DNA of 64,000 bases from Nemertoderma westbladi (GCA_032718475.1 JAUCBJ010007195.1:29277-93276), one strand, 5' to 3'; positions 15,001 to 64,000 are shown, numbered from the stretch's first letter. A program made the numbers and translations. The notes: generated by a model from the sequence alone, not told the origin.

Positions 15001-15305
15001 TAACTAACCTTACTCTAACTATAACACACAAACTAACCTTTACTCTAACTATAACACACAAACTAACCTTTACTCTAACTATAACACACAAACTAACCTT
15101 TACTCTAACTATAACACACAAACTAACCTTTACTCTAACTATAACACACAAACTAACCTTTACTCTAACTATAACACACAAACTAACCTTAATTCTAACT
15201 ATAACACACAAACTAACCTTAATTCTAACTGTAACACACAAACTAACCTTAATTCTAACTATAACACACAAACTAACCTTAATTCTAACTATAACACACA
15301 AACTA
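1..15305. repeat. 30-bp tandem satellite (ttaattctaactataacacacaaactaacc), ~510 units, running off the window start; intronic in the FN3 gene
   Basis: Directly visible 30-bp periodicity with variants ttaattct/tttactct/ttaatttt/gtaattct and occasional 1-nt indels. Confidence 0.98.
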
Positions 15306-18300: not shown

Positions 18301-18731
18301 GGCATTCGCATCCATCAACAGTATAGGTATTGAGTGTTGATTCCCATGGAGTATCCCCTCAATTTTTCCTAGAAAGTCATCGTATGTAGAATTGGCCTTA
18401 CTGGAGTCAGGGCCATAACATGAGAGAGCTGTGTATTGTTGTTCCCTGTTTATAAGGTTAAATGTGGCCCCCACGATATTGTCGCCGCTCTCAACTCTTG
18501 TATAGTTGTGGATGATTGATTTACGTAGGAAGAGGGCTGTCCCTCCAGCTCCTCTGGCGCGGTAGGGGTTGCCCATTAAATCACTAGTGAGTGACTCACA
18601 GTAGAATTCATTGTGGAATGACATTAGCAGGTCTTTAGACTCAATATCATTGAGCCAGTGTTCCTGTATTCCCACAATATCACAATCTGTTAAGATGTTG
18701 TATAAGTAACTGGCTGAGTTTTTGAATCCGT
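15306..18731 (-). mobile_element. 5'-truncated non-LTR retrotransposon (APE endonuclease + RT; RTE-X/CR1-L2-like, clade uncertain) inserted in the satellite
   Basis: Endonuclease motifs GIQEHWL, MDANA, SYIDHI and SDHSPI; RT motifs YRPISIVS, LDISSAFD, GVKQGSLLSPTLF, YADD and FLGV. 3' UTR ends near ATTAAA with no poly(A). The sequence aacta flanks both ends (15301-15305, 18732-18736). Confidence 0.93.
15662..18730 (-). pseudogene. LINE ORF2 (endonuclease-RT), N-terminally truncated, with one frameshift near 17670
   Basis: The endonuclease lies in the frame of ORF 17572..19212 and the RT in ORF 15662..17671. The frames switch around ...KDLFNIW / ELCETNAP... Confidence 0.85.
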
Positions 18732-21546
18732 AACTAACCTTTACTCTAACTATAACACACAAACTAACCTTAATTCTAACTATAACACACAAACTAACCT
18801 TAATTCTAACTATAACACACAAACTAACCTTAATTCTAACTATAACACACAAACTAACCTTAATTCTAACTATAACACACAAACTAACCTTAATTCTAAC
18901 TATAACACACAAACTAACCTTAATTCTAACTATAACACACAAACTAACCTTAATTCTAACTATAACACACAAACTAACCTTTACTCTAACTATAACACAC
19001 AAACTAACCTTAATTCTAACTATAACACACAAACTAACCTTAATTCTAACTATAACACACAAACTAACCTTTACTCTAACTATAACACACAAACTAACCT
19101 TAATTTTAACTATAACACACAAACTAACCTTAATTTTAACTATAACACACAAACTAACCGTAATTCTAACTATAACACACAAACTTACACACACACAACA
19201 CAACACACACACATAACTAACCTTAATCTAACTTTAACACACAAACTAACCTTAATTCTAACTATAACACACAAACTAACCTTAATTCTAACTATAACAC
19301 ACAAACTAACCGTAATTCTAACTATAACACACAAACTAACCTTAATTTTAACTATAACACAAAAACTAACCTTAATTTTAACTATAACACACAAACTAAC
19401 CTTTACTCTAACTATAACACACAAACTAACCTTTACTCTAACTATAACACACAAACTAACCTTAATTATAACTATAACACACAAACTAACCTTAATTTTA
19501 ACTATAACACACAAACTAACCTTAATTCTAACTATAACACACAAACTTACACACACACAACACAACACACACACATAACTAACCTTAATCTAACTTTAAC
19601 ACACAAACTAACCTTAATTCTAACTATAACACACAAACTAACCTTAATTCTAACTATAACACACAAACTAACCGTAATTCTAACTATAACACACAAACTA
19701 ACCTTAATTTTAACTATAACACAAAAACTAACCTTAATTTTAACTATAACACACAAACTAACCTTTACTCTAACTATAACACACAAACTAACCTTTACTC
19801 TAACTATAACACACAAACTAACCTTAATTATAACTATAACACACAAACTAACCTTAATTCTAACTATAACACACAAACTAACCGTAATTCTAACTATAAC
19901 ACACAAACTAACCTTAATTTTAACTATAACACAAAAACTAAACCTTAATTTTAACTATAACACACAAACTAACCTTTACTCTAACTATAACACACAAACT
20001 AACCTTTACTCTAACTATAACACACAAACTAACCTTAATTTTAACTATAACACACAAACTAACCTTAATTTTAACTATAACACACAAACTAACCTTAATT
20101 TTAACTATAACACACAAACTAACCTTTACTCTAACTATAACACACAAACTAACCTTTACTCTAACTATAACACACAAACTAACCTTAATTCTAACTATAA
20201 CACACAAACTAACCTTAATTTTAACTATAACACACAAACTAAGCTTAATTATACATATAACACACAAACTAACCTTAATTCTAACTATAACACACAAACT
20301 AACCTTAATTCTAACTATAACACACAAACTAACCGTAATTCTAACTATAACACACAAACTAACCTTAATTTTAACTATAACACACAAACTAACCTTAATT
20401 TTAACTATAACACACAAACTAAGCTTAATTCTAACTATAACACACAAACTAACCTTAATTCTAACTATAACACACAAACTAACCTTAATTCTAACTATAA
20501 CACACAAACTAAGCTTTACTCTAACTATAACACACAAACTAAGCTTAATTCTAACTATAACACACAAACTAACCTTAATTATAACTGTAACAAACAAACT
20601 AACCTTAATTCTAACTATAACACACAAACTAACCTTTACTCTAACTATAACACACAAACAAACCTTAATTTTAACTATAACACACAAACTAACCTTAATT
20701 CTAACTATAACACACAAACTAACCTTAATTCTAACTATAAGACACAAACTAACCTTAATTCGAACTATAACACACAAACTAACCTTAATCTAACTTTAAC
20801 ACACAAACTAACCTTAATTCTAACTATAACACACAAACTAACCTTAATTCTAACTATAACACACAAACTTACACACACACAACACAACACACACACATAA
20901 CTAACCTTAATCTAACTTTAACACACAAACTAACCTTAATTCTAACTATAACACACAAACTAACCTTAATTCTAACTATAACACACAAACTAACCGTAAT
21001 TCTAACTATAACACACAAACTAACCTTAATTCTAACTATAACACACAAACTAGCCTTAATTCTAACTGTAACACACAAACTAACCGTAATTCTAACTATA
21101 ACACACAAACTAACCTTAATTCTAACTGTAACAAACAAACCAACCTTAATTCTAACTGTAACAAACAAACTAACCTTAATTCTAACTGTAACAAACAAAC
21201 TAACCTTAATTCTAACTGTAACACACAAACTAACCGTAATTCTAACTATAACACACAAACTAACCTTAATTCTAACTGTAACAAACAAACCAACCTTAAT
21301 TCTAACTGTAACAAACAAACTAACCTTAATTCTAACTGTAACAAACAAACCAACCTTAATTCTAACTGTAACACACAAACTAACCTTAATTCTAACTGTA
21401 ACACACAAACTAACCTTAATTCTAACTATAACACACAAACTAACCTTAATTCTAACTATAACACACAAACTAACCTTTACTCTAACTATAACACACAAAC
21501 TAACCTTAATTCTAACTGTAACAAACAAACTAACCTTAATTCTAAC
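18732..21546. repeat. Continuation of the 30-bp satellite (~94 units), more diverged toward the exon at 21535
   Basis: Same unit. Variants ctgtaac and acaaacaaac concentrate at 21060-21530. Confidence 0.97.
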
Positions 21547-22277
21547 ACTGTCAACTTCCAAATTTACTGTACAGCCGTGTTGTTTCCCATTAACGAGGAT
21601 CCGGTAACCAAGGGAAACGGTATCGTCATCGGGCGATCGACCAACCGGGGTCCAATGAATAGTGGCGTTGAGTACGCCGGTAGAATCCTCAAGAAGTACC
21701 AAAGATTCCTCCAACTGTTGATCCAGATCAACCAAAGTGTGAGCGAGTTTGTTTAACTGGAAGTCAGACAGTCGAAATGTTAATAAGTAATGATTATAAT
21801 AATTATTGATAAAGATACTTTCTGGTAATATACTATCAAATAATATAGTAACAAATTTATACAATTAATATAGAACTTATCAATGATACAACCTTACATA
21901 TTATTCATTATACAAGCGCATTACGCTGCTATTTTGCCTGTCTTAATAATTTTAGGCCTACAAAGAATATCCGTAGATTAACACTCCGTAAAACAAGCGA
22001 CGCTAAACTTTTGGCATATAAATGGACAGTAAGGAATAATAAAGCTTACCTGTACATCTTGTTGGGTACTGCTAGCCACTCTCTGGTCGTGTTTATGGAA
22101 CTCTATCTCCCGCAGTATTTGGTCCCGTTTATTGACTATGTCGCTAGTAGATTGCTCCAACGCCAACCTCTCATCTACACCATGTACCTCCACAGTGATG
22201 TCGGGTGGTGTAGCTAATATGGCCGGTTTCAATCCACATAGTCTCTCGCTATCTATTGGTCCCGGCACTCCATAAGC
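21535..22277 (-). CDS. Two FN3-gene exons (coiled-coil segment followed by an FN3 domain)
   Basis: Phase-0 exons of 228 and 222 nt. The junction reads QQDVQ/LNKLAHTL, and the second exon ends DSVRIK|GTTAGT. Confidence 0.85.
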
Positions 22278-25200
22278 CTATTGTAATTAAATACGTATCA
22301 CGTCTTATTATAATACTACTCGGAATGTTGAAATTAAGAAACTTAATTTCATGTGGTCAAAAACATAACAAAGGGATCATAAAAGCTCGAATAAGTTTTT
22401 GAGTTTATTTTTTCACTTTTTCCATTATGGTAAAGGAGCGGGTTACAGTGCAGTCAGTACTATTTAACCAAAACAATAGACTAATTTCCCTTTATAATGT
22501 GTATTCACTCTCCTCTTGAGACCTTTTATATCTTCATGAGCAACACCAACAACCCTCTCTCTCCCTGCACTGCAAATTATGTTATGAATGATTGTATGGT
22601 AGATGCTATGACATTGTATGAGACATGAGACAGGGTATGAGACATGATATGAGACATTGGATTAACACTTGGTAATTAAAGTGAATCCGTGTTTTTTTAC
22701 CAAATTCCGGATTAAGTAAACATATGAATCCGTGTTTTAGTTTTACACTTCATCCAGTGTTGAGCTTAATATATGAATGCGTGATTAAACACCGCTCCGG
22801 ATCTTAAACATAAATACACCCAGTTTCGGATTCAGTAGATTTAGTGTATCAGTATCACTATGCAGGGCTCCACGGATTACACCTAGTAATAGTGTATCAG
22901 TATCACTATGCAGGGCTCCACGGATTACACCTAGTAATAGTGTATCAGTATCACTATGCAGGGCTCCACGGATTACACCTAATCAGTATCACTATGCAGG
23001 GCTCCACGGATTACACCTAATAATAGTGTATCAGTATCACTATGCAAAATCTAGAAAAAAATCGCCTCCGCTTTGCAGGACATTGCATTCGCCGTGAGAA
23101 CCAGCCAGTGCATAATCTTGCACTTTGGCAGCCTCATGGAGTGAATAAGCATGGTGGACAGCCCATGACTTTCTTGAGACGCATCTTAAAGGACACCGGC
23201 CTTAAAGATGCGGATGATCTAGCAAATGTCATGGGTGATAGGGAGTTGTGGCGGTGCAATTTTGTTGACAAGCCGGCACAGCATTCTTAAAAATGCAGCT
23301 GCAATGCAGCATGCCGATCCTAGATCATTATGCAGGGATCCACGGATTACACCTAGTAATGTAAATTCTATCGAGTTCCATAGGAACAATAATAAATGAT
23401 AGTATGCAGATCCCGATCCGCGTTATTTACCATCCTTTCAAATATTTTTATCAATAATTTTTATCAAATATTATCATTGTTAAATTTGAATATAAAATTA
23501 ATATGAACTCCACATACTATACAAAACATACTATTAATATAATTATAAAATATCAGTTGCTTACAAATTTAGCGAATATATAATTATAATAATTGCACTT
23601 ATTAATTATTATTATTATTATTAGTAATTAAATATTTCATAAACGAAAAATAACGTAAAATAGAAAGAAAACTAACACCATAAGACCATACTGAAAAACA
23701 CTGACCAGGGATAATTTACCAACCTGACCGATAAAAGTTTATGGTGGTGAAAAAGAATGTACCTCGCTGGTAGAACCATGGATCGCTGGTAGAACCATGG
23801 ATCGCTGGTAGAACCATGGATCGCTGGTAGAACCATGGATCGCTGGTAGAACCATGGATCGCTGGTAGAACCATGGATCGCTGGTAGAACCATGGATCGC
23901 TGGTAGAACCATGGATCGCTGGTACAATATTATTTACCAACGTTGGTTAATTAGTATAGTTAACTATCAAATATTTATACAATTGCGAATTAATTAATAA
24001 AATTATTAAGTATAAATGATTAATTAAATATAAATAGCCTTTACTATAAACAATACAGATAAAAAGGTATAGAAATAAAGTTACTTGGTATAAATAGAAA
24101 AGTTGCAAAAAAATAGTAACGCCTTTCAAATAAACTTGAAGCACAAAAGTTTAATTAGTAAAAACAAATTAAATGTAGAAAACGTGTTCAATGGAGTTTT
24201 ACATGTAAATAAAATAAAATTATATAAAATAAACAGCGGAAAGTTATTGCAAGGTAGAGGAGGAGTCGGTTTCCTCGCTGGGTGTTAGACTAAAGGGGAG
24301 TTGGTAATGGGAGTTAGCAACGAGACTGGAGACATGGATGGGGCCGTACGGGGACTTCTGGGACAGACTCACTTGTTGTTTGGCGGCGCACTGAAGCAGG
24401 AAGTTGAACGTAAGGGCGGCCGACATGCGGGAGTTCCTAGAAGGTTGACAGAACTCGGAGAACAGCGTCGGAACGGCGGAGCGCAACGAGGAACGGATGT
24501 TGGAATCGGCGAGAACTTTAGCGTGGCGGTAGAACTTCGGGTCGAAGGAACTGGAGGTGGAGAAACGCGACCGACTCGATAACATAGACGACTGCTGGAC
24601 GGAGGAGTCGGACTCGCGTTGCTCAGCAACCAGACTAGGTCTACCCATCTCTATATCGGGGACCTGGGGGACCGAGGTATCTGTAACCATGGCAACCTCT
24701 GATATATCCCGGAAGTATTCCGTCCCCGGAACAATGCCGGAAGTGCCGGTCACCGAATCCTGGAGGGACTCCCGGAGCTGGCCCAACATCCCCTCCACCG
24801 CCGGGCCCAAAGTGTCCGACTTCTCGGACAACCCGGACACCCGTCTGTCCGACTCGGCGAGCGAGGCGTCCGGGACGATGTGGCCGCTGCGCTGCGGCTC
24901 GACGGACGTCTCTAGCGAGCGGAAGGGCTCCGGGAGCGACAGATCCGCGGTGCGGTTCCGTTCGGTAGGGGGTGCTGGACCCAGCGGCAGGGTCGCTGTC
25001 CCTGGGACGCCCGGTCGACGGCCCCACAGCCGTCCGTGCAGCTCCCCGGAGAGCCCCGGCAGTCGGCGACTTGGGCCCCCCATATCGATCCTCCCGGACT
25101 CTCGGAGTCCCACGGCCGTGTCGTCCACGAATATGTCGCTGGGATGCCAACATATTCCCTCAGAGTGGCCGATGTTAAACTTAAGCGTGGCGACAGGCAG

Positions 25201-28200
25201 GGAAATGACGTTGTCTACGCGGAGCTTCCGCTTACGGGGCCTAGGCGGGCCGACCGCTGGGGCGGCCTGGGGAGCTAACCCGTCGGTTTGGGGAGCTAAC
25301 CCGTCGGGTTGGGGAGCTAACCCGTCGGGTTGGGGAGCTAACCCGTCGGGTTGGGGAGCTAACCCGTCGGGTTGGGGAGCTAACCCGTCGTGTTGGGGAC
25401 CTAACCCATCACCTTGGGGACCTAACCCATCGGGTTGGGGAGCTAACCCGTCGGGTTGAGGGGCTAACCCGTCGGGTTGAGGAGCTAACCCATGGGGACC
25501 CATCTCCCCTTGCCCAGGCACATCGGTATCCATAACGACGGGTACGGACTGCTCAACCCCTCCTTCCAGTACAACCGGCCCCTCCCCGGAGACCGCTGTG
25601 AGTCTTGCAGACTCGTTGGCGCCGCGAGAAAGACCCAACGAGCCAGCCAACCCGCGGGGCCCCTCTACGGCGACGTCGGACTCCGAAGTGGCTCCCGGCG
25701 TCGCCAACCGCTTGCGTTTACCGTCGCCGGGGGGGCCGGAGTCTGGGGGGATGGGCCGCTTCCGTCTGCCGGGTTCCCTGGTGGGTGGTCCCTCGGGAAC
25801 CACTCCTGGGGGGCCCTCGTCGGGAACCGGTGCCCCCTCCGTACGGCGGCCCCCTTCCCCCTCCCTACGGCCCCCTTCCCCCTCCATACGGCCCCCTTCC
25901 CCCTCCCTACGGCCCCCTTCCCCCTCCTTACGGCCCCCTTCCCCCTCCTTACTGCCCCCTTCCCCTACCTTACCGCCCCCCTTCCACCCCTCCACCACCG
26001 AATCCCTACTAACCATCTCCTCGTACCCAAACGATGCCAACTGCTGGAGGAACTGTTCCTCTCGTTCCGCAAACGACAGATGTTCGTCGCCGAAGGTCTC
26101 GGGCCCGAACACTGACTCGGGGGCGAGGGCCGGTGGTTCCAGCAGGGTGATGCTCCGTATATCCTGCACGACAGTGCGGTCCGCGGCGTCCGGGCGGGGT
26201 ATCAGCGCGGGTCCGAGGTCCGGAAACCCATCCCCGGAGCCCCGGAGCTGCCGACTCACCTCCCGCAGGAACGGGTCGTTATCCGCGTCGAACAGCATCC
26301 CGAAGGCCGCCTCCAACTCGATGTGGTCGTCCGGTATGTTTATACAATGGCCGCCACCCAACGCATCCGCGTTCAGGTTGACCAGCTGTTGGTCCCGTCT
26401 GGCCGATGTTATCGAGACCATGCGATAAACTCCCTTGCGAGCCTTCAAAGCGTCTTCGTGAAGACGAATCATCTGGTATTCGTAAACCCGAACGATCCCG
26501 CCGTATAGAATAGCAGCTAATCGCAACGACATTTTCCCCTTCGGGCTTAAATTCCCTCTGCTTAACTCCACGTGAATACCCTGGAGGTATTTCAGAACTT
26601 CCACGCAGGAAGTAGAAATGGAACTTTTCAAGAAATTACGAAATATATTCGGTTGTTTGTTCTGAGCCTCTTTGTATGTCAACCGGTGGATTCCGGCGTA
26701 CCAAAATATACCCAGGGGGGTGTGCAACGAACATATCTTATTCTCCCAAAACATTACGTAACTGATCGTATGGCAGTATGGTGAACACAACGCAAAAGTT
26801 TTAACACAAAAATATTAAAGATTAAACAACAAAAACAAATAAACACAAACCAAATAACGTTAACTAAAAAAACTCTAAAGAAAATAACCTATTTAATTCA
26901 AAATTTAACTAGGCCTACCGTAAACCCTTTGATCCAACTCTTAAAATAAAACAGGAGGAAATCCCGATATCGTGTCTGGCCGGGCAAATTGATGGATGCA
27001 AGAAAGTTTCAGTTATGAGTTAAATACATAGGCCAAAGATTACCGGTAGGCCTAGGCCTACCGGTATGCTTGTCCAGATGTCGTTAATAAAGTGAAAGGT
27101 TACATGGATGATAAACGCTTGGATAGAAACAAAACAATAAACAAAAGTCAATAGGTATAGGCCTACTTACATCATGAAGAATCAGGATAAATCTATCGGT
27201 GCCGGTAGCGTCATACTGGCAAATTTAAACAACGAAACGAACGTCTGATAGTTGGAAACTGATAGTAAATTGATAGGTGAATTGTTACCGGTAGCGGTAG
27301 GGCAAGAGGAGCCAGTCGCCATGCGGTACGGGAACGGTAGGCTAGAGTGGATTCGGTAGAATGCCGCATGAGGGGAAATGTGACGACAGATGTTCATGAC
27401 ATAACATAGTAGAAAGATTAAAGTAAAGGGTATTATAGAAAGTAACGTTGAACGATAAATTTAATTCCTTCTTGAGTAAACTCTACAGCGTCAGGCGGTA
27501 GTCCGCCGAATATGAAGCTATTAAGTACGTACTGCCGGTGCCGGTGCGGGGTCTTAAATTATTGCCCATCAAGTAGACATCCCTCATCCTTTCCGCTTCA
27601 TCATATTGTGCGACTCTAATCTCTCTTCACAAAGTTAAATTAGATGTGGTGGAAATAAACTGACCCGCCCTAACCGTAAACTTTATTCTCATCGACAATC
27701 AGTGCGTGCGGCTGTCTCTGCTCAGTCGGAGGGTTGTCTAGTTGGTCATGTAGAAAACTTATGAGTCTAGGTTTCTGAGATCAGCTGACAGCTGATCTCA
27801 TCGTTTACGAAATTTTACCACATTGCCTGCATTACCATTAAGTAAATTATAAGTTTTATACTGTTTTATACTAGGATGCTAGGCGTTGCACGCGGTAGCA
27901 TCTTATGGCCAAAACCTAGCTCTACCCTACAGACCCGAAGGATGACTCACTTGATGGCCTTAGCTATCGTAGAAAAGATCTACCTGTGATTGATCGCGGC
28001 CAACTGGTTGTTGAGAGGAAAGAGGGAGGTTAACCCATGAGATTCCTGAAACCTCCAGTCCAGTACAAGAAGATAATGCAATGGCTGGTCGCACCAAGGA
28101 CAACGAGTATAGTAAATGTTTTGGGTGATTTTGGTAGAAAATTTTATTGTGATCAATAATCCAAATGATAACCGACTTGAATAATTGAGGATTTTGTATA

Positions 28201-31200
28201 AATTGAAATTAAAAAATTGACACCAGCAACTGTTAAGGCAATTCTTCCGATTGCTTCCATATATTATTATACTGTAGTAATTAATTTTCTGTTGAAAATG
28301 ATTACAATTAAACTTACATAACCGGAATCCCCATCTTTATGGCACACTTTTATGACCATTTCATTTCAGTGACACCTCACATATATTTGCTGGAGACGAT
28401 TGTTTGAAATGTAGTTATTGAATGTTTTGGTTGGAAGTATAATTTAATACACACATTGCAATTGTGGAAAGTGTTCGCGGTATTTCAACTTTCCATAACG
28501 CGAGTTGAATATTTTTGTATTTTATTAAAATTGATTATTCCGATATTACTACTGGGTGCGGGACCATGGGTTTTGGGCACATTCAATAAACTGGGGGCGA
28601 TTTATGGGCGAACTTTGGGGCAACTTACAGGGTACGGGAATAATTTCATAGTTATAAGGGCCAGGGGGGATGGAAAATGCAAGCAGTATTCAGGTTAGCC
28701 TGAGTACTATTAGGCCCTGGCCAACTTCCTGCTGCCTGTAGGGGTGGATTTGGTAATGTGCCAGGCCTAAAGGACAAGGACTGCCCTTAGCGGTCCCTGG
28801 CCAACGGCAGCTACTACGAGCCTGAAAAGGACTCGGAACGCTGACTGCTTGTGTCAGGGATTTGCGACGGGCACCGACGGCCCCTTAGTAGCCAAGCCGT
28901 TCTGGGTCTCGATGATCGAACCCCGGGGTTCGTGAGGGGTGGAGTGGACACGCGAACAGGTGGCCAACTTAAGACTGCCCCCTGACCTAAGCCGTACTGG
29001 TTCTCGATGACCGATCCCTTCGGGGTTCGTGAGGGGTGGGACGGACATGCGAAAGGGCTGGCCACAGGACTGGTTTGACAAGGACTGCCCTTAGCGGTCT
29101 CGGGTCAACTGCGGCTACTACGAGCCTGAAAAGGACTCGGAACGCTGACTGCTTGACTGTGATTTGCGACGGGAACCGACGACAGACCCCTTAGCCAAGC
29201 CGTTCTGGTTCTCGATGATCGTTCCCTTCGGGGTTCGTGAGGGGTGGAACGGACACGCGATGGGGTCGAAAGACAAAGGACTAGACCCGACTAGACTCTA
29301 CTGGCCTACCGACTGTTCGGAGCAGTTTCTCGGCTGCCGAAGCAACTACGAGCCTGAAAAGGACTCGGAAAGCCTAGGTGGTTGGGTTTCTGTGATGAAC
29401 TGACGGACCCCTAGCCAAGCCGTTCTGGTTCTCGATGACCGATCCCTTCCGGGTTCGTGAGGGGTGGAACGGACACGCGAACGGGTCCACCGACACGACA
29501 GACTCCTAGCCAAGCCGTACTGGTTCTCGATGACCGAACCCTTCGGGGTTCGAGAGGGGTGGTACGGATACGCGACAGAGTCTACCGACTGGACCGACCC
29601 TTAGCCAAGCCGTGCTGGTTCTCGATGATCGTTCCCTTCGGGGCTCGTGAGGGGTGGAACGGACACGCGACAGGGTCGACCGACACCGACACTACGGCAC
29701 TAAGACTGGGACTGAGGGAAAATCTGGGGAACATTAGGTAGGCTAAAATTCTGAGCGAACAGCGGGTTATTAAATAATATACCGTAGGGATTTATATTAT
29801 CGTGTATACTTATTGTGAATATTTGGTGTATATTGATTTGGGGAAGCCCAAAATTATTCTTAATCAGGTTTGCAACTATAGGAAGTTACATTAAAGAGTA
29901 TATCCAACTAATGCAGCTTTTCTCAACCGCAAACTTGCATCTTAGAAATATTCCCTCCCCACAATCAATATCCGGTGACTGGCCGGGGCTCGGTGGTCTG
30001 TTAAGTCACGTCTCCAGCATCGGCGTTTTTCCCCTTGGTGTAGGAATAACGGCAACAAAATTAAGAATAATTATATGGTTAATTTTGACCGGGTGTCAAA
30101 ATTAAGAATAATTAACGTGGTTAATTTTGACAGGGTGTCAAAATTAAGAATAATTATCGCGGTCAACTTCAACTGGTGGAAGTTGAGAATCCTTCAATAC
30201 TCTTCAAAAACTCTCTACGTGCTTGCCAGCACCCACTACGAGGAAACTCTGGTATTTGAGTTGAGACAAAGTCGTGGTTTAATTAAACAACAAACTCGAT
30301 CTAACCAACTCGTAGTCGGCAGATCACAATTCGGGAGAGTTGTTAACAGGGAATGGAAGTATCGATCACACCCATTGATATAATTCAAGTTGAGCCAGGA
30401 ATCTGGCACGTCGAAGTTGAGGTACAAGGAACGAACGTTGGACGATTCAGGATTACTGTTCGGGTGGTCCAAGCTGAGTACAATACCTACGAGGAACTGT
30501 TTTACGACATCGCGTATCTCGCCATCGAGGAGGCCTTACAATGACCACAAATAACATATCCGATACCGACGAGATGGATCACCACACAGACTCGGAAGCC
30601 GACGAGGTCCCAAACGTCAAGAACATGACCCGTCGGTTAGGGGCTCTTAAAGGCGGAGTAACCCGAGCGTATCAACGGATGGAGAAACAACTCAAGGGAG
30701 TCAAAACCCCCCTCAATGAGGTACAAACTCAGCTTCAAAGTATCCGAAATATCCTACAGCGGTACGAAAGAATGATACAGGCGTACCAAGAGCTCGTTCC
30801 TCCCACCGATCAGGAAAACTACCCCAAGCTGGAAGAACACGTTGTACATCTAGATGGGTTCCGCAAACAACACCGGAGGACCCTCAGCCTGGTGAGAGGC
30901 TATGAGGAACAGTATTACAAGAGGGCTGAAAGAACAGACGCGGAATCAGTACGATCCTCCAGCATCAGGACAGGAGTACATCACAAGAGAATGGGGTCCA
31001 CCAGAAATCAGCACTCCAGCGCTAGGAGCGAGATATCCGGCTCAGCGCGCAGCTCTCAAGGGGCGCCGCCACTCCGAGACCAACTGAGAGAACGGAAGGC
31101 ATTAGCCCTCAAAGCTCGGATGGAAGATGAGTATATTCAACTGCAAGCCGAGCAAGATGTACTAGCCGCCGAAACACAAAGGCGAGAGGCCGAACAAGCG

Positions 31201-34200
31201 GCCGAACGACAGGCCGAACAACGCGAACAGGAGGCCGAACAACATAGACGAGAGGCCGAACGACAGGCCGAACAACGCAAACAGGAGGCCGAACAACGCA
31301 AACAGGAGGCCGAACAACATAGACGAGAGGCCGAACGGCAGGCCGAACAACATAGAAGAGAGGACGAACGACAGGCCGAACAACGCAAACAGGAGGCCGA
31401 ACAACGCGGACGAGAGGCAGAACGAGAGATCGAACAACGTAAATGGGAAGCGGAAATGCGTAAACAACACGCCGAGGCCCAAGCAATTCTCATCCACAAA
31501 AAGAATGCGGATATTGCAAAACTCGCAGAATACGAAGCCGCACTTATCGAACGAGATATTCAACTCTACGAGGACTGGGAAAGGGATATAGATCAGGAAT
31601 ATGAACCAATTCCGGTACCGGAGTTAGAAAAGTCATTTACACCAACAGCGGCGAAACCTCCGAAACCCGAGATTCCGCCTACCAAACAGTCTACGCTATC
31701 GGCACAAGCCCCGGTGTTCCATCCCCCACCGGCTACGCTAAAGAATGAGGAACCCTATTTCCCATCCAACACCACGACAGCGAGTGTACCCAAGTACGAG
31801 CCTGAAAAGGACTCGGAACGGGACGCCACTCCCCGATCAAACAACCCATTTACATCAACACCACAAACTCGCAGCCGCGTCATTATTAAAACTCCACCTA
31901 CTATTGATCCATCAAGTATGGGAGTGAGTGCCAATAACTATAACCCTCCGAGTCACTCTAGTTCAGACAACGTCAGCATCATCCGGGCGTTGGAGAACCG
32001 CCTTGCCATGCCAAAGATGGAGATTCGCACCTTCGAAGGAGATCCCGTCGATTACCTCAGATTCAAGAAACGGTTCTTTGCGCAGATCGGATCAACGGAC
32101 ATAGCCGACGCACAGAAATTGGTATATTTATCGCAATACCTGGGTGACAAGCCACGCAGAATTGTTGCATGTTTTGAGGGAGGTTCTCATGAGGCATACT
32201 ATGACGCATGGAAAACTCTAGATAAAAGATACGGAAATACCGGAACTATAATTAATAAAACTCTAGAGAAACTGATACAAGACGCGGGATCACTAGGGGA
32301 CCCACAGAACCTCCAGGAATTCTCAGATTCCATGAAGGATGCCTACTACACTCTGAAACCCTTAAATAAGGAGGACCAGGTGAACAACATTCTAAACCTC
32401 CGACAGATCGCCCGGAAGTTCCCCGGATGGCTGCAAAGTAAGTGGGCCTATAAATGCGTAGATCTCCGGCGCAGACATCCAGATCAAGATCCCAGCTTCC
32501 TCGAAATGTCGGCATTCCTGGACGATATCTCCGAAGCCATGAATGACTCGATGTTCTCGAAACAAAGTCTCGCCAAGTTGGACGCAATGGAGAGCAATTA
32601 CCAGAGCAGGGCACCCACTCCAAACCCAAGATTCCGCCCTACTCCTGTGAGTGCGATGGCCATCAGTATGGCTGAGGACTCGGATGACGAGGATTACGAG
32701 GAACCGACCTCAGCAGAAGAATGGGCATGCTACCTAGCGAATTGGGCACCCGAAAGGGAAGGCACCACAGCCTCCCCTATATGTCTCTTCTGTGGGGAGA
32801 AACACAAAGTGGAATTCTGCAGAAAGTTTCAGTTCGCCGAACTCGTCCCACGCTTCGAGGCGATAATGAAACACCGAGGATGCTTCCGGTGTCTTGGAAC
32901 AGGTCACTATGTTCGGGAGTGCGACCAAAGATCATGCTGTACTGTCTGTAACGACCAACGCCATCACACGCTCCTCCATATCCCCGCGAACTTCGATTTT
33001 ACTACCCTCCCCTTTCGGATCGAAGCCAGGCGAAGAGGAGAAACAAACCACATCTTCAAAGGAACCCGGACAACCCAACGGAGAGAAACCAACCCGTTTA
33101 AGATCTCCACCAATACACCACAAGTAACCAATATTTCGGCCACGATTAATCTTATAAATCGCCGCTACATGGTTTTCGCAAAGGTAATCCCAGTGAGGAT
33201 CCAAGGAGTCGGCAAATCTTTGACGACACTCGCGTTCCTCGATAACGGGTCTGACGGAACCATCATCGACCGGGATTTCCTCGAGCAACTCGGCCTAGAA
33301 TATGAACCTTGTAAACGGCCCATACAAACCATCACCGATAACAGAGAGGTAGAGTCTGGGGAGGTGCAACTCCAGATGGAAGGAGTGATGAAGGGCTACG
33401 AAACGGCTAAGTTAACCATAAAGAACGCCTTGGTACACACAGACCTCCGGGTGCGGTTCCGACAATCAGCCGAGTACGCCCCCCTCATACAATTGGACCG
33501 GGACGATGTAGACCTGAGGTGTCCGCAGTTGGACGTAAACCGTATCACCCTACTGATCGGACTTGATACACCGGAACTACACATCCCCACAGGAGATATC
33601 GCCCGATCTATAAACCAGGATGACGGATTTTATGCTGAACGAACAATAATGGGATGGACACTCTGCGGCATTAAGGAGGAAACTACGGACACCTATACCT
33701 ACCTTCCTAAATGTCAGATTAAAGAGAATGTAACCTCTGTGGGTTATTGCTCAGTTTCGGATCTTGACGAGGATTTGTTTCTGGAAACAGAGAAAACCCA
33801 ACGAGAGATGACGAAATATTTTAATTTGGAGACCCAAGAGTTCGCGGAAAAGGACGAAAACCCATCCGAAGAGGACCAATATTGTATGGACGTTCTCGAC
33901 CAGGCCACGTTTAAAGACGGACATTGGCGCGTACCCATGCTTTGGTGGATAATAAGGTTATTGATGATAATAATGATGTTGATAACATTGACACCATTAA
34001 TTGGAGAGCACGGACTAATCTGCCGTAATACCCGGATGGCGAACGCCTCAGTTGAGTCCCTCACTCCTAACCACTTACTGGGGAGACCCAAAACCCACCT
34101 CCTCCCGGAAACCATGTTCCCGGATCCCAACGAGATCGCGAAACATACAAACTGGAAAAAGGCCCAAGCGTTGGCAGCGCATTGGTGGAGGATTTGGGCC

Positions 34201-37200
34201 CAGGAATATCTCATAACCCTCCGGACCAGGAGGAAATGGAACAACACCCACCGGAACGTCGCAGTTGGCGACATGGTACTAGTTAGAGAAGATCTCAAAG
34301 ACCGCGTTCACTGGCCTGTGGCGCGGGTCGTGACCATACACCCAAGCAAAGACGGACTTGCGAGGACTGTGACGATACGAACGAAAGCGGGCCACTACCA
34401 ACGCCCCATCCAGAAGCTGTGCCTTCTTGAAGGCAATGACAGTGGTGATTCTACAAGAGGTGATAAGTTCCCTACGGATCCTGCTGCAGACATTGGTGAC
34501 AATTATAAATGCGTTTAAACCCTTTCTCATCATGTTGACAAACTCTTATTAACTGTGATTTATCGACAATGAGTTATGGACCCCCCTTAAACCAACTGTA
34601 ACCACGCAATGGTATTTGTGTTTCCTCGTGTGTTATGTGGAGTCCAGCATCACCCTGCAGATGTTTCGACTGACGCAGGGTCGTTTATGCATTGTTTACC
34701 CTGATTTTGGTCATCAGGACCTACGATATTGGATTATTGGAAATGGAAAAGATTTGAAGTGGAATTCATTGTATTCATTGCAGTATGTTATGTTGTCCGT
34801 TGCGTGCGCAGTTCGGGGCGTAGGCGGTGTAACGAGTCCAGCTGTAGATCCCGGATTGCCGCGCAACACCCCCTCTATCCCGTTATTCTGGTGGGTCCAT
34901 GGTGCATCCACATGACTTCGACGATAGAGGGTTTTATGTTTCTCAGTCGCGTTATTCTGGTGGGACCGTTGCGTGGATTTTGGGGCGTAGGCGGTGTAAC
35001 GAGTCCAGCTGTAGATCCCAGAATGTTGCGTAACCCCATCCCACATGACTTCGTCGACTGAGCTTTATGTTGTTGGGAGTGTTATTCTGGTGGGTCCCTG
35101 GTGCACCCACGTGACTTCACTCCTAGCGTCTTCATTGTCCGTTACGTGCGCAGTTTGGGGCGTAGGCGGTGTAACGAGTCCAGCTGTAGATCCCAGATTG
35201 CCGCGTAACACCCCTTCCACGACAAAGATTAACCAAAGAAAATGATTCAATATAGTTGGAAATGATGAAAAGGATCAGACAACTCTGCTATAAACCTGAA
35301 TGATGACGCGTATACTGATGAAAATGAAATGATGCGCACCCTGGTGCTGCGCTTATAACAATGATGATAGCCGGGGGGCTATAAACCCAATGATGATGTG
35401 GAAATAAATAAATGTGAAATAAATGGTGGAACTAAATGTGTTGAAATATGTGGAAATAAATGAAATGAGATGAAATAATAATGAAATGAAAAAAGACAAA
35501 AAAAAGGTATAAAAGAGGTCAAAGAAAAGAATTGGAAAAAAAAGGACAAAAAAGTCATAAAAAACTGGTTGGATATTATGTATAGCTATAGTAACTGTAA
35601 ATGCTGAATGTATTAGCAATAAGATGATAGATGCCTATATAGCAATGTTATTGAATAAACTGAATTAAATAAAAAACTGAATTATTCTGCTATCGCTATA
35701 GTTTCAGACTTTCTGGACTTATAATTAACTGAACTAATTTGTAACGGATATAATCGTAAATATGGACCCAAATCGCCAAATTATCGGCGAATTACGTAAC
35801 ACGGTAGATCTACTGGAATATTCGCAACCCGGATCCCCTGACTTTGATACAAATTGGAACATTCTGCTAAATGAGAACGTACGAGAAATTAAATTCACCG
35901 GGCGTGAGGGACCGGATTCTAAGAATCTACGAGCCCTCCGGTTAGCCGATGCTACTACGAGCCTGAAAAGGACTCGGAACGCAAAGGCAACCGGAGGGGA
36001 CGATTCGTCGTTTTGGGAAACGTTCCGGCAGAGCGTCTACAGATCCCGATGTTTGATCTACGACAACGAGGGAAACGCGACGCCCACCTCGAAGGCGATT
36101 ACGTTGGCGAGATGTCAGAGCTTCGTCGACGACAAGAGTACGTACCTCGCCCACTGGGGAAACCTGTCGGAGTGTACGGCGACGCTTCGAGAGGAACGCG
36201 TATCGATTATACAAAACCGCGACGACTACCAGGAAAAGTACGGGGCGAAAGAATACGGTCGATCCTTAGTCGTCGTCCTCGGAACCCTGGACGGTTTGGT
36301 ACTGGTGTGCCGAATATTCCCGACACCCAGACATGAAGTGCAGGCAGCCGGAGCGATCTGGTTGCTGCCTACGGATATCCAAAAGATCCTCTTCGACTTC
36401 GACGTCATTAAAATCGGGTCGGATATCAAGGCGGACGTCCGGAACGATTACGCGAACGCTCCCGCAGGAAGAAACCGACGAAACGACCTCAACGCACTTA
36501 GCCATTGCATCGATACTCAAACGCTGCTAGCCTGGTTACGATTCGCCGAGTTCATGCGAGGATTCCAAGAAGTGAGACCGACGAAATCCGGGATCGGCTA
36601 CCTCGCTGTGCTCAACGGCGGTATCGACTTCAAACCCCAGAAATTCCGGGACTATAATAAAATATACGGCGGATACCCGGGATTAGAGATAAAGAGCGAG
36701 CGAGAGGGTCGATGGAAGGACGTCGATCGGAAGTGGACGATACACCAAAGGTGGGAGAATCCCGATCGACGGAGCTATATCTACGTCGTTATGGAATGCT
36801 ACACCGTCGCTAAGTTTATCTGCAAGACTCTAGATAACCTCATCAAGGCGGTCCCCCTTTCCTTCGTCGACTACGACTGGAACGAGGTTATAAACCACGC
36901 GTTTAAAGCGGTCGAGAACATTACACCGGGAGAATCAAAAACGCCCGCCGTTATCGATTCCTGGGACGAGAGCGGACCTTACGACATCCCTACGATTACC
37001 GAACTTCTCGGTGCGGAGGAGCCTCTGATCTCCTCGGAAGGGGAAGAGATATGGCTAAACGAGGGTGTTCTACTCTCCACCCCGAAGCGACAACTCGAAC
37101 CGGAGGCCGCGTATGGACCGGCCGCCAAACGGGTTGCCTCGGCCGAACCGATAAAGAGAGCAGGCGTCTACACCCCACGCGGCTCCGGTAGCCCCGCGAG

Positions 37201-40200
37201 AGAGGTAGCCACTACGGCTGCATTGAGCGACTTCGGCGACATATGCCAACGGTTATCCCCGTATCCTTTCCCGGGTGGCGAAGATTGGTCGTCGGAGATC
37301 CCGAGTACCAGCCACCAACGGACCCGCTCAGCGATACTGGTCGAGGAGGGACCCAGCGATGCGCCGACACCCGATGATCTCCTCGGTATCCCTACGTCGA
37401 AAACCCCGGCACCTCTTCGCCGACCAGCGGTAGCTACTACACCCGCCGTTCCTCAGGACCCTATGCGACTAACCCGTTGGTACGCCGAGCAAACTGAATG
37501 GATCCACCGCCAGAAACGGTCGTCCGAGTTGAGACCATCGGGACATAAAGAGGGTTATCGGAGCGAAAACATACTACGCAAGAGCCCAGCATTCCGCGGG
37601 CTACCGATCACCGAGAATATTCCGAAGAGCGACCGACGACTCGAATACTACGCCGGCGTTCCGATTCCGATATTCCCCGGTCGGGAGATGCAGTTGGAGG
37701 TATGCGACGACTGCGGTTCGGAGCAGTGCCCACGCAGCAGAAGGAATCGGGTTACCGATTCTTGCCTCCAGCTCCTTGGGATACTCTATTGCCCATACTG
37801 CGCGATATCGGGCCACGACGTTTCGGTCTGTCCGATCCTTTATAACCTCTGCACCAAGTGCGGTTTCCGTGGACATTCCGCTAGCCCCCGCTGCTATATT
37901 AAATGTCCAACCAAAGACGTTACCGCTATGGGCAATATGGTCATGTTTGAGACATACGCAAACAGCCATTTAAAGACCAAGTTTCGGAGAAACGCTCGGA
38001 ATATCGCGCAGGAGATGGCGTGCGGATATTTCTCCTTCCCGGAACGCCTCCACACGTCGGCCTCGCTACCCTTCCATTACGTGGATCTGCTACTGAGCGC
38101 CGGATTATTCGGTCCATTCGAAGTTATTAGACGATTATATTCGTATAAAGAGGAGTTCGGTGACGGAGAATGGTTCCTAGAGGCACGCAACTCCGAGTTG
38201 GAAAGACGAACCGACATGATCCCGATGCCTTCGAAAGGAAGAGCCGCCAGGAGACAAGCCGAAGCGTTACTCACGATGGATGTTGACGCTCCTCTACCAG
38301 CCATAGCGATCGATGAGAGTCGACGGGCGAAGAGACGGAAGGCGTATCAGAAAAAGAAATAGTGGATTGGGATATTCCAGGAACATTTATCGAACATTTA
38401 TTTTTATACAAACTCTAGGCCAAATTAATTAAAACTATGCAATATTAAATTTGGGATTTTTATATTGGGAATGACCTACGCAAACTCAATCGACCGACAG
38501 ACTTCACGAAGGTCATTGGGGGGGACTGTTCGCGGTATTTCAACTTTCCATAACGCGAGTTGAATATTTTTGTATTTTATTAAAATTGATTATTCCGATA
38601 TTACTACTGGGTGCGGGACCATGGGTTTTGGGCACATTCAATAAACTGGGGGCGATTTATGGGCGAACTTTGGGGCAACTTACAGGGTACGGGAATAATT
38701 TCATAGTTATAAGGGCCAGGGGGGATGGAAAATGCAAGCAGTATTCAGGTTAGCCTGAGTACTATTAGGTCCTGGCCAACTTCCTGCTGCCTGTAGGGGT
38801 GGATTTGGTAATGTGCCAGGCCTAAAGGACAAGGACTGCCCTTAGCGGTCCCTGGCCAACGGCAGCTACTACGAGCCTGAAAAGGACTCGGAACGCTGAC
38901 TGCTTGTGTCAGGGATTTGCGACGGGCACCGACGGCCCCTTAGTAGCCAAGCCGTTCTGGGTCTCGATGATCGAACCCCGGGGTTCGTGAGGGGTGGAGC
39001 GGACACGCGAACAGGTGGCCAACTTAAGACTGCCCCCTGACCTAAGCCGTACTGGTTCTCGATGACCGATCCCTTCGGGGTTCGTGAGGGGTGGGACGGA
39101 CATGCGAAAGGGCTGGCCACAGGACTGGTTTGACAAGGACTGCCCTTAGCGGTCTCGGGTCAACTGCGGCTACTACGAGCCTGAAAAGGACTCGGAACGC
39201 TGACTGCTTGACTGTGATTTGCGACGGGAACCGACGACAGACCCCTTAGCCAAGCCGTTCTGGTTCTCGATGATCGTTCCCTTCGGGGTTCGTGAGGGGT
39301 GGAACGGACACGCGATGGGGTCGAAAGACAAAGGACTAGACCCGACTAGACTCTACTGGCCTACCGACTGTTCGGAGCAGTTTCTCGGCTGCCGAAGCAA
39401 CTACGAGCCTGAAAAGGACTCGGAAAGCCTAGGTGGTTGGGTTTCTGTGATGAACTGACGGACCCCTAGCCAAGCCGTTCTGGTTCTCGATGACCGATCC
39501 CTTCCGGGTTCGTGAGGGGTGGAACGGACACGCGAACGGGTCCACCGACACGACAGACTCCTAGCCAAGCCGTACTGGTTCTCGATGACCGAACCCTTCG
39601 GGGTTCGAGAGGGGTGGTACGGATACGCGACAGAGTCTACCGACTGGACCGACCCTTAGCCAAGCCGTGCTGGTTCTCGATGATCGTTCCCTTCGGGGCT
39701 CGTGAGGGGTGGAACGGACACGCGACAGGGTCGACCGACACCGACACTACGGCACTAAGACTGGGACTGAGGGAAAATCTGGGGAACATTAGGTAGGCTA
39801 AAATTCTGAGCGAACAGCGGGTTATTAAATAATATACCGTAGGGATTTATATTATCGTGTATACTTATTGTGAATATTTGGTGTATATTGATTTGGGGAA
39901 GCCCAAAATTATTCTTAATCAGGTTTGCAACTATAGGAAGTTACATTAAAGAGTATATCCAACTAATGCAGCTTTTCTCAACCGCAAACTTGCATCTTAG
40001 AAATATTCCCTCCCCACAATCAATATCCGGTGACTGGCCGGGGCTCGGTGGTCTGTTAAGTCACGTCTCCAGCATCGGCGTTTTTCCCCTTGGTGTAGGA
40101 ATAACGGCAACAGAAAGGTTTTTCAATTATATTAAGATACTGGTACAACTAGGAATTTAAGATTGATATTGATGTAATGGTATGTTATTTAATTAATTTT

Positions 40201-43200
40201 AAAAATTAATTTAACTGTAGAAACCTTCATTAGTGTTACGATAGAGCAAACTTTATCACTTATTGACACCGGGGCCCTCTTCCATTTAGAATTATAGTCA
40301 GTAAAAATGGGGGATCAAAAATCGCATTGTTTTTGAATTTTTAAATTCATGATACGGTAAGAATTGGGCCTCAAAATCCTCAATGATGTCAGTTGGGCGC
40401 TCTCTAGCGCCCATGTGAAGAATACCAGGATTTCCGCCCATGTGAAGAATACCAGGATTTCACTTTTCGGTCGACGGAATTATAATATATGACGATTTTT
40501 TATTTTCTTAAATTAACCTTTATTAAGTGTTTTTTAGCGCTTATTTCTGTCTTATAACCTGTACATATACTAATTCGTTTATTGTTTTGGTTAGATTCAG
40601 CCCTTCTGTAACCTGTGTTTTTAGTGAAAACCTGGTATTCTTCACATGGGGGTAACAGCAAAGTGAAATATAACGGCAGAAAGTCTGGTATTCTTCGCAT
40701 GGGCCCAGTTGGGCATTATTGGTCGGATTATTGCTGACAACCGTACTACATACATACCCAAAGGAGTCGAATATTTGTTTCATACACAGGATTTCTGTTG
40801 CTACTCGAACGACTGCCAGTACAGTGTAACCAAACATTGTTAGTATAGCAGTATAGTGTAACCAATGAAAGAGCTGCCTTCTAATCTGTTTGTTCGGAGG
40901 GAAATTCAAGAGGAATTTAGAAACACCAAAAATGTGTTTTAACTCAGTCTGTTCTGGGTGTCAGTTGTCTGGTTGACAGGGTGTTGATGGGGATGCCTGG
41001 TGGTTTTTATATTGCTCTTTGGTCGTGGACTTACTTATCTTGGTACCGGTAGCGGACATCTATACTAAGAAAAAAAGCGAGGATTTCATGTCCTCTTACT
41101 AGGGCATTCCTATGTTTGTGTTAGTAGAGACCCACATTTTTGATAGCGTGCTGAGCTGATGCAATTAGTCTGCCACTCTGCCAGCAGCTTTACATGTGGT
41201 GTGGTTTGCAGTTGGCGTGGTAATGTCACGATTGTGTTTTTGGTGAGTGGAAGGGGAAGTAGTACCGTCAATATGAAATGGGAAGTAGAATAGGCATAAA
41301 TCACATTCATAATATATGATAAACCAGTTGCGAAGTACCGGCAGTAGCAGTCCGGTGCGGTAGGCAGGTACCGTATGTGGGTATGTAGTTCAAGAACATG
41401 ATATGCTCACTCGTTTAATTGACCGGTATAATTAATGGATTTCATAGCTGATCTCTTTATAAAATATCGAAGAAAACGCGACTATCTAGAAGACAAGTGT
41501 TCCTCGTCCATTAACTCTTTGTACTCAAAGATAATTCCAGAGGATTCCGATAACATAGGAGAGATATATCGGCACCATACATCCCGTGCGATACAATATT
41601 TAAACCCTTCCTGGGCACAGGAAACAGTTCCCCGACCAACTATTACAAACATAAGTGAGCAGTTAAGTCGAGCTAAACAGACCCGCGTATATGAGACGGC
41701 AACCCAACCCCAATTCATTACGGGATTCCTCAGCGTTTTCTTCCTCACATATTACAAGAAACATTTTCGCGTCCAAACCTTTGCGAGTTTCGGGACGGGC
41801 GTGGCGTTAGGAGCCGTGTTTTACTCAAAGATCATCGTTCGGTCGTACGAGCGGGTCACGTCTTACATAACATTTGGTAACCTGGGAATGGGACCCGATG
41901 ATTACAGGGACGCCTGGAGATACGCAAAGAAAGTAAGAAGTGGAACGCAATAATAAAAATCAGTGAATAAAATATAATTTTTATTTGTAATTATTCGAAA
42001 TAATCGGAGATATTTTTCGCTCGCTCGCTGTAACTTACGTAATAATGTTAAGGAGATTTGTTTTCCCTGTTAGAACTAAACCGATTCGTCATAAATTCAG
42101 TAACTTTAGTAATATAACCGGCCTTTCGACCCAAACTCGTGGTGTTAGTCGTTTTATACCTTTGAAGATTCAATTTCTCGGTGCAGTAGGAAAATTATCC
42201 TTTTCAACCGGTACAAACAAAACCGGAAGTAAGGCGGACAATGCATCCACTCCAGACCCGGACGATGCATCCACCCCAGAACCGGAGGATAACACTGACA
42301 CGGCCGATGACTTTACCGATGATCGCGAGGTTGATGACGATGGAACTATTTACCGGAACCCGACCGGCAACCAGCCCTGGTGGCATCCGTGGCGCAGCGC
42401 CCGCTGGAAGGATTCCGAATGGCCGGAAGATAAACTCCGGCCCCCGGACGCCGAGTTCGACCGACTGCAGGACACCTACACGGAGCTGAACGAGGGAAGC
42501 TGGACGTCCACGGACCCGTTCGACTACAGATGGTTCCAGGAAACGATGAAGAAAGATAAGGTGAGATAGTTGGAGAGAAGTGAGATGGGGTGGTCTGGTC
42601 TGGTCTCGTTGTTTCATAACTTGGTACCGGTAATGAATGTAGTGGAAGTGATTGACACAAATATAATTATCCATCTACTAATAGCCCCTACAAATATTTT
42701 CATATTTTTTGAAATCTGATAATTAAAATTATTAATTGTGCGTGCTGCGTATTAATGTGCGTATTAATACGTCCTGTTATGTACCACCACTCCCTTAGGC
42801 TCACTACAAGTTCTTGATACTACATGCCTATATTAAATGTCCCATTAATAGTATATGTATCTTCTCCATTAGGTTGTTATATTTATAAAAGGAACCCCCA
42901 GCCATCCCCTATGTCGCTTCTCCCATGCCCTTGTCAACGTAATGGACCTACACGGAGTGCCTTATAAGAGTTACGATGTTCTATCTGATTATAAACTCCT
43001 CGAGGGAATTAAACGATATTCTATGTGGCCAACCACTCCAATGGTGAGTCAGATAGGGAGGGAGGTGGGGTGGGTGGCAGATAGGGCGGGAGGTGGGTGG
43101 CAGATAGGGAGGGAGGTGGGTGGCAGATAGGGCGGGAGGTGGGTGGCGGATAGGGAGGGAGGTGGGTGGCGGATAGGGAGGGAGGTGGGTGGCGGATAGG

Positions 43201-63875: not shown

Positions 63876-64000
63876 CTATAGGTTAATAAATAATATGTAA
63901 CGTATTTTGGGGCAACGACATACTGAGGCTGCTCATCTTAAATGTCACAAATTCCAAACGCGTTCCATAATGTTAAATGAAAATGTTACTGGCCATTTCA

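Follow-up and report, generated by a model that had tools for sequence, protein, structure and literature searches.

The long terminal repeats (LTRs) of a BEL/Pao retrotransposon in the 64,000-nucleotide stretch of Nemertoderma westbladi DNA analysed here (the window) carry an array of nine repeat units of two kinds, predicted to fold as hairpins and ordered B-A-A-B-A-B-A-A-A along the LTR, and by analogy with the viral elements RcRE and CTE we tentatively suggest, at somewhat less than an even chance, that this array binds several protein molecules close to the RNA's 3' terminus and would thereby serve the export and protection of the RNA.

The element is a BEL/Pao LTR retrotransposon with LTRs, a target-site duplication, a polypurine tract and DUF1759, aspartyl protease and DUF5641 domains in one ORF (Pfam E-values of 4.6e-15, 6.5e-5 and 1e-28 respectively), and it spans about 11.6 kb with an array-bearing LTR at each end (Table 1). 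The two LTRs show 2 differences in 1586 nt and no Pfam match to a reverse transcriptase (RT), RNase H or integrase core was found in ORF1, and so we take the element to be young and non-autonomous. The sole homolog of the ORF1 region from a protein search, P0004 (24% identity), is a full Pao-type polyprotein with a Pao peptidase A17. In DNA runs from three studies the contig depth of the LTR was far above that of the flanks, which, depth not being equal to copy number, is in line with an abundant family. The array block has a GC content of 0.59 compared to 0.41 and 0.35 on its two sides. No related locus was retrieved by searching with ORF2 or with alignments of it, and all covariation described below is among paralogous units of this one element.

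Table 1. Features of the element and their positions in the window (z, folding relative to shuffles)
Feature	Position	Strand	Remarks
Target-site duplication	28467-28471 and 40113-40117		5 nt
5' LTR	28472..30057	+	TG...CA, 1586 nt
TATA-like site (candidate)	28653..28658	+	TATAAG, directly upstream of the array
Module B1	28782..28873	+	long stem, internal loop, bulged A, GAAA hairpin; core 28815-28838; z -6.6
Module A1	28880..28964	+	degraded, no UUCG; z -0.4
Module A2	28977..29058	+	weak; z +0.9
Module B2	29086..29175	+	core 29119-29142
Module A3	29185..29267	+	basal stem, YUA/GAN loop, 2-bp helix, 4x4 loop, inner stem, K-turn-pattern bulge, UUCG cap; z -2.6
Module B3	29315..29401	+	core 29347-29370; flanking stem unrelated
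Module A4	29405..29488	+	UUCC cap; z -2.2
Module A5	29500..29583	+	sole compensatory inner-stem change; z -3.1
Module A6	29595..29678	+	z -1.3
ATTAAA (candidate)	29769..29774	+	directly past the array; possible alternative poly(A) signal
Predicted self-primer, putative R start	29852..29864	+	perfect complement of the PBS
ATTAAA	29890..29895	+	putative poly(A) signal closing a short R
Primer-binding site (PBS)	30060..30155	+	three copies, at 30060, 30101 and 30143; begins 2 nt past the LTR end
ORF1	30478..34518	+	BEL/Pao Gag (DUF1759), zinc knuckle, protease, DUF5641
Module B4	31795..31818	+	core inside ORF1, reads YEPEKDSE
Module D	34799..35210	+ only	three copies, cores at 34817, 34984 and 35159; covarying flanking stems
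ORF2	35762..38362	+	866 aa; 3'-5' exonuclease-like domain, Cys/His zinc-knuckle-like region, basic C-terminus
Module B5	35934..35998	+	inside ORF2; core 35956-35979, reads TTSLKRTRN; own long stem; z -7.0
Polypurine tract	38518..38525	+	
3' LTR	38527..40112	+	same array (~38745-39775); the copy expected at the RNA 3' end

Elsewhere in the window, an uninterrupted reading frame of 856 aa at 24244-26814 (minus strand) matches the Rad21/Rec8 N-terminal domain (E 7.6e-6) and has a 7-aa internal repeat, while a LINE-type endonuclease and reverse transcriptase lie in two overlapping frames at 15662-19227 (minus strand), between satellite blocks. Long strand-skewed tandem repeats fill 1-15500, 19200-21800, 43000-47000 and 52000-64000; those on the left have a period of 30 nt, those at 43-47 kb form a G-rich block and those on the right an A-rich one.

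The six units of about 85 nt that we call module A were found at the places given for them in the preliminary description, with their GAU bulges at 28911, 29006, 29214, 29434, 29529 and 29624, and a covariance model, built from the very units that it later counted, found exactly six per LTR (12 matches at E<1e-23, the next at E 0.81, in 15000-52000). They had been described by one consensus with a UUCG cap; all six exist, but A1 and A2 are degraded, and the cap is present in A2, A3, A5 and A6 but is UUCC in A4 and has no UUCG in A1. Relative to shuffles A3-A5 fold better, A6 is marginal, and A1 and A2 fold no better. The linkers are variable and ACCGAC-rich as described (eight occurrences in 28690-29720, a count without a chance control), but three of them contain a second conserved hairpin.

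Covariation of the basal stem was borne out, as pairing each 5' flank with its cognate 3' flank gave the lowest summed duplex energy of all 720 permutations (rank 1, for both 8- and 12-nt flanks); a cruder tally of pairs in register gave no significant result for these flanks (90 and 67 of 720 permutations being as high) because loop size varies between units. In the alignment 89.9% of cells were paired compared to 33-56% for slid partners, which 0 of 500 shuffles equalled, this alignment having seven rows (the six units and the 3' LTR copy of A1) of units that are kin, with a structure drawn from the same sequences. Two-sided changes were seen in 5 of 27 pairs, four of them within the basal helix, and the inner-stem covariation claimed earlier came down to one two-sided change, in A5, at a pair that is broken in A2 and A6. 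Across A2-A6, 15 of 71 core positions vary compared to 10 of 12 in each flank (a figure inflated by register shift) and the flanks are still paired. A YUA-GC/GC-GA basal loop lies under all six A units, in altered form in A2, and also under B1 and B2. Predicted folding of the array favours the plus strand by 56 kcal/mol, whereas in each of three coding stretches taken as controls it favours the minus strand. The cognate basal stems, the second and third covarying modules described below and the plus-strand UUCG and GAAA caps together support the earlier view that the structure is under selection at the RNA level.

Among the family variants listed, an inner-stem T>A at 29204 is met at its partner 29248 by A>G and not by the compensatory A>T, but these contig tables are unphased, pool the six A units and in one case give 40 of 131 rows, and they are not a test of covariation. 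A contig from run X5, which we only guess to be RNA, connects 28901 directly with 29615, extending 430 and 433 nt to either side of the joint, and so represents an LTR with one B and one A; from such contig joints the number of units seems to vary among family copies. Comparison with Rfam, proposed earlier as a check, returned nothing in 28000-30500 at E<=5 except two chance-level small-RNA matches, and modules A, B and D match no Rfam family. The exact A pattern had 0 matches in viral contigs, and a looser pattern gave 120 single matches there which we judged to be chance, since none folds like an A unit by eye and the best blastn alignments to the element were of 26-29 nt at E 0.005.

A kink-turn (K-turn) had been proposed for module A, and its sequence pattern (3-nt bulge, tandem G.A/A.G, C and NC helices) does fit all six units, which share with standard K-turns of the box C/D and U4 type the C-G at -1b,-1n in every case, but the register required is not the predicted fold. 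With RNAalifold as with folding of the single sequences, a slipped helix, offset by two bases and leaving a 5-nt AUGAY bulge, comes out ahead; relative to it the K-turn register is inferior by 0.8 kcal/mol in A1 and by 4.0-6.0 kcal/mol in A2-A6, and the pair probabilities of the K-turn C-helix are approximately 0 in all six units. Nearest-neighbour models score neither sheared pairs nor protein binding and have no term for a K-turn. Besides this stabler predicted Watson-Crick rival, A differs from standard K-turns in having no guide sequences or terminal C/D pair and in sitting in an LTR. The pattern arose in 15 of 5000 shuffles of A3 and has one other weak match in 22000-43000 on both strands, and the six matches amount to one chance event rather than six because the units share one ancestor. 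The breaks seen (A1 column 36, A5 column 65 and the family variant at 29238), which are few, affect only pairs unique to the slipped register. Box C/D K-turns fold only on binding of the 15.5K protein (PMC5579392, in excerpt), and we consider it about an even chance that A adopts a K-turn, probably only when a protein induces it.

Other identities for A were tried and rejected. A SECIS pattern of AUGA/GA core, 11-12 bp helix and apical AA has 0 matches in the array and the ORFs stop at TAA (ORF1) and TAG (ORF2), not UGA; a pseudoknot of the 5' AGCCA with UGGUU could form but is without covariation and is broken in A1 and A2. The strict pattern of the 11-nt tetraloop receptor has 0 matches in the element, and the likenesses considered, to the twister ribozyme, group II intron domain 5 and the sarcin-ricin loop, did not survive any strict test.

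Module B, the second hairpin, has a GAAA cap, a bulged A and a 24-nt core which is identical at five sites (0 expected), three in the array and one inside each ORF, where the two copies are read in different frames. The flanks of the B copies differ in sequence, yet their cognate pairing ranks 2 of 120, and the long flanking stem is formed by B1, B3 and B5 but not by B4. No compensatory change was seen in the core, and its perfect identity fits recent copying or a DNA-level site equally well. One stem pair of B1 is changed on both sides (28821 C>A and 28830 G>A) to a mismatch at 42-66% of contig depth (X1, X3 and X4, among the variants listed), the two changes occurring together in the X5 contig, and this counts against strict pairing at that position. 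The B pattern had 0 matches in metagenome contigs.

Module D lies between the ORFs, after the ORF1 stop, and shows two-sided changes in 3 of 25 pairs among its three copies, which fold on the plus strand only (z of -4.3, -2.1 and -4.6 compared to -0.5, +1.1 and -0.3 on the minus strand). Seven nt of the D loop could pair with the 3' strand of B, a complementarity that 2.8% of shuffles also showed and that was noticed after the fact. The stretch 35262-35400 contains four RTGATGA motifs resembling box C, a number reached in 45 of 2000 shuffles, and two CTGA motifs resembling box D, with an Rfam match to sR3 at E 0.56; these may represent additional K-turn sites, uORFs of the start-stop type or simply low complexity. 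They are followed at 35403-35673, between D and ORF2, by seven A(A/T)TAAA hexamers, counted in an A-rich region without a chance control, at which a separate ORF1 mRNA might terminate, D then being the structure at its 3' end.

The placing of the array in the transcript depends on the PBS, of which the 13 nt at 30060-30072 are a perfect complement of 29852-29864 in the LTR and which lacks complementarity to the CCA end of a tRNA. Of some 8,400 internal positions, only the three PBS copies give a 13-mer complementary to the LTR, and a match of even 12 nt arose neither in 5000 shuffles of the LTR nor in 20000 of its AT-rich end. Contig joints were seen to drop PBS copies. In Tf1 a PBS of 11 nt is complementary to a site within the LTR instead of to a tRNA (PMC7175516, in excerpt), and the 13-nt complement points to self-priming of the Tf1/Sushi type, with the differences that the PBS is triplicated here and that the element is BEL/Pao. 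Self-priming has been described or proposed for Tf1, Sushi and Tcn1 of Ty3/gypsy and for TAR, Houba and Osr-1 of copia (PMC6317226, in excerpt), and none was found for BEL/Pao in the open-access literature searched.

By the Tf1 analogy the complement at 29852-29864 would mark the RNA 5' end downstream of the array, and so the array would lie in U3 and only at the RNA 3' end, which speaks against the long R region at both RNA ends suggested in the preliminary description. As noted there, the TATA-like site at 28653 and the ATTAAA at 29769 do bracket the array closely, and an additional transcription start may lie near the former; the TATA-like site nearest to the predicted start is only 23 nt before 29852. 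The U3 of the 3' LTR belongs to every full-length LTR-element RNA, so it had been a mistake to treat a location in U3 as untranscribed and hence contrary to a role for the RNA structure.

ORF2 putatively combines a domain like that of DEDDy-type exonucleases with zinc knuckles. Its residues 80-385 gave a language-model match to a 3'-5' exonuclease (Atlas 0.93; 24 of 30 matches in PF01612 clusters) and three distant homologs were found (E 2e-6 to 7e-4), while no direct Pfam or PDB match was obtained for ORF2 and a protein search with the whole ORF2 and with its C-terminal region gave 0 matches. A fold search had EXD2 in its top rows at E ~1, starting from a poor model of ORF2 (pLDDT 31 and 36 for the two models). 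In a 4-sequence alignment the first catalytic motif is DxE in the homologs and D-D-Y in ORF2, and is thus apparently incomplete, while the later D and Y-x3-E are present. One protein, P0005, has both the exonuclease-like domain, with the first catalytic motif intact, and a Cys/His-rich C-terminal region as in ORF2, suggesting that this two-domain layout represents an undescribed family of mobile-element accessory proteins. The bdelloid LTR retrotransposons Juno and Vesta likewise have an extra ORF after pol, the DEDDy-type exonuclease ORF3, and the activity of such ORFs in bdelloid LTR elements is undemonstrated (PMC5408684, in excerpt). They differ in belonging to other clades than BEL/Pao, and ORF2 adds zinc knuckles and has the apparently incomplete first motif; no LTR array is mentioned for the bdelloid elements in that excerpt.

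In the reading that we favour, transcription would start near 29852, the first 13 nt of the RNA would prime reverse transcription and the array, as U3, would be read only from the 3' LTR. Each unit would fold locally with its variable basal stem insulating an invariant head, on a YUA/GAN-type basal loop common to eight of the nine hairpins. Module A would offer its invariant GAUGA bulge to a host L7Ae-family protein such as 15.5K/Snu13 and become a K-turn on binding, while B would be bound by an element-encoded protein, most simply ORF2 with its exonuclease-like fold and zinc knuckles. More copies would give higher avidity, which may be selectable in a non-autonomous element that borrows RT and integrase, and RNA with a bound array would be exported and protected.

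A close parallel is RcRE, a structured U3 element 433 nt long to which the accessory protein Rec binds (PMC11379458, in excerpt). Like the array as predicted here, it is a large structured RNA in U3 at the RNA 3' end with an accessory ORF just upstream, the U3 position of the array being predicted from the PBS. RcRE is, however, one folded domain rather than a modular tandem array, ORF2 is exonuclease-like and not Rev-like, and the function proposed here is a prediction. The CTE elements (the MPMV CTE and the RSV direct repeats) similarly recruit a host factor through stem-loops at the 3' end whose internal loops are conserved (PMC3856414, in excerpt), whereas our array has no sequence match in Rfam, its candidate ligand is of the L7Ae family and not NXF1, and it has 6+3 copies.

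Transcription might instead begin at 28653 and yield either a structured non-coding RNA of about 1.1 kb ending at the ATTAAA at 29769, which as a stand-alone RNA made from every LTR copy could be a decoy soaking up host RNA-binding or silencing proteins, or else a long R or leader. The GC-rich folded block begins about 35 nt past the TATAAG at 28653 and ends about 50 nt before that ATTAAA, which has a GU-rich stretch behind it, and the LTR is abundant in the DNA runs of three studies, but use of that ATTAAA would truncate the full-length RNA ahead of R, the primer complement of 13 nt ends at 29852, as it should if the RNA begins there, and the B copies inside the ORFs would be unexplained, so we regard these two versions jointly as unlikely. 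The recurrence of B along the whole RNA, in ORF1, ORF2 and U3, would suit dispersed packaging or RNP-assembly signals for the Gag zinc knuckles, multiplied by a defective element to capture the particles and enzymes of an autonomous relative, as would the finding of a young element without RT, RNase H and integrase core, and the 4x4 loop of A, which presumably resembles a GAAA-tetraloop receptor, could with the GAAA end of B fold or dimerise the RNA. This too is improbable, however, as the strict receptor pattern is absent from the element, a U3 array would also be present on any ORF2 subgenomic RNA and could not discriminate the genome, and packaging signals are mostly at the 5' end.

Tandem repeats are common in retroviral U3 (PMC3601003, in excerpt), and the units could be DNA-level U3 enhancers or neutral products of reverse transcriptase switching templates at hairpins, a process that also makes inverted repeats perfect and can pass for covariation; the decay of two of the six A units, the apparently variable unit number and the B core without compensatory change are on the side of this explanation. 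We nevertheless think it decidedly unlikely, given that three unrelated modules each hold invariant loops on divergent, still-paired stems, that the G-U pairs and the UUCG and GAAA caps are strand-specific and that a long stem surrounds B within the ORF2 coding sequence. In retrozymes the tandem structured units of the LTRs are reportedly ribozymes, and on this precedent one of the modules might be a self-cleaving ribozyme giving unit-length RNAs. Unusual hammerhead permutations are on record (PMC10085705, in excerpt), but hammerhead CUGANGA cores number 0 in the array on both strands, the Rfam comparison gave only its two chance-level small-RNA matches, and cutting in U3 would separate the RNA from R, all of which makes a ribozyme very improbable.

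In a bolder reading, which we consider rather doubtful, the element would be a modular RNA scaffold of three new motifs, its K-turn hairpins hijacking the 15.5K/snoRNP route by which the host assembles and exports RNPs and its GAAA hairpins docking on these or binding ORF2, with self-primed reverse transcription. Were this scaffold reading true, the element would provide, each for the first time, a tandem K-turn array occurring naturally on the RNA of a mobile element and a BEL/Pao element that primes itself, with the array possibly also released from U3 as a stand-alone decoy RNA.

Arrays of K-turns bound by L7Ae are a tool of synthetic biology, and the open-access literature searched yielded neither K-turn arrays nor similar modular arrays in the LTRs of retrotransposons, so that within this literature a natural K-turn array on a mobile element would be new. 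The self-priming predicted here would extend this mode to BEL/Pao as a third LTR superfamily. Little is known of how the unspliced RNA of invertebrate LTR retrotransposons leaves the nucleus and how these elements evade silencing, and here candidate RNA sites and a candidate protein partner occur together in one young element, where they are accessible as RNAs of 60-90 nt.
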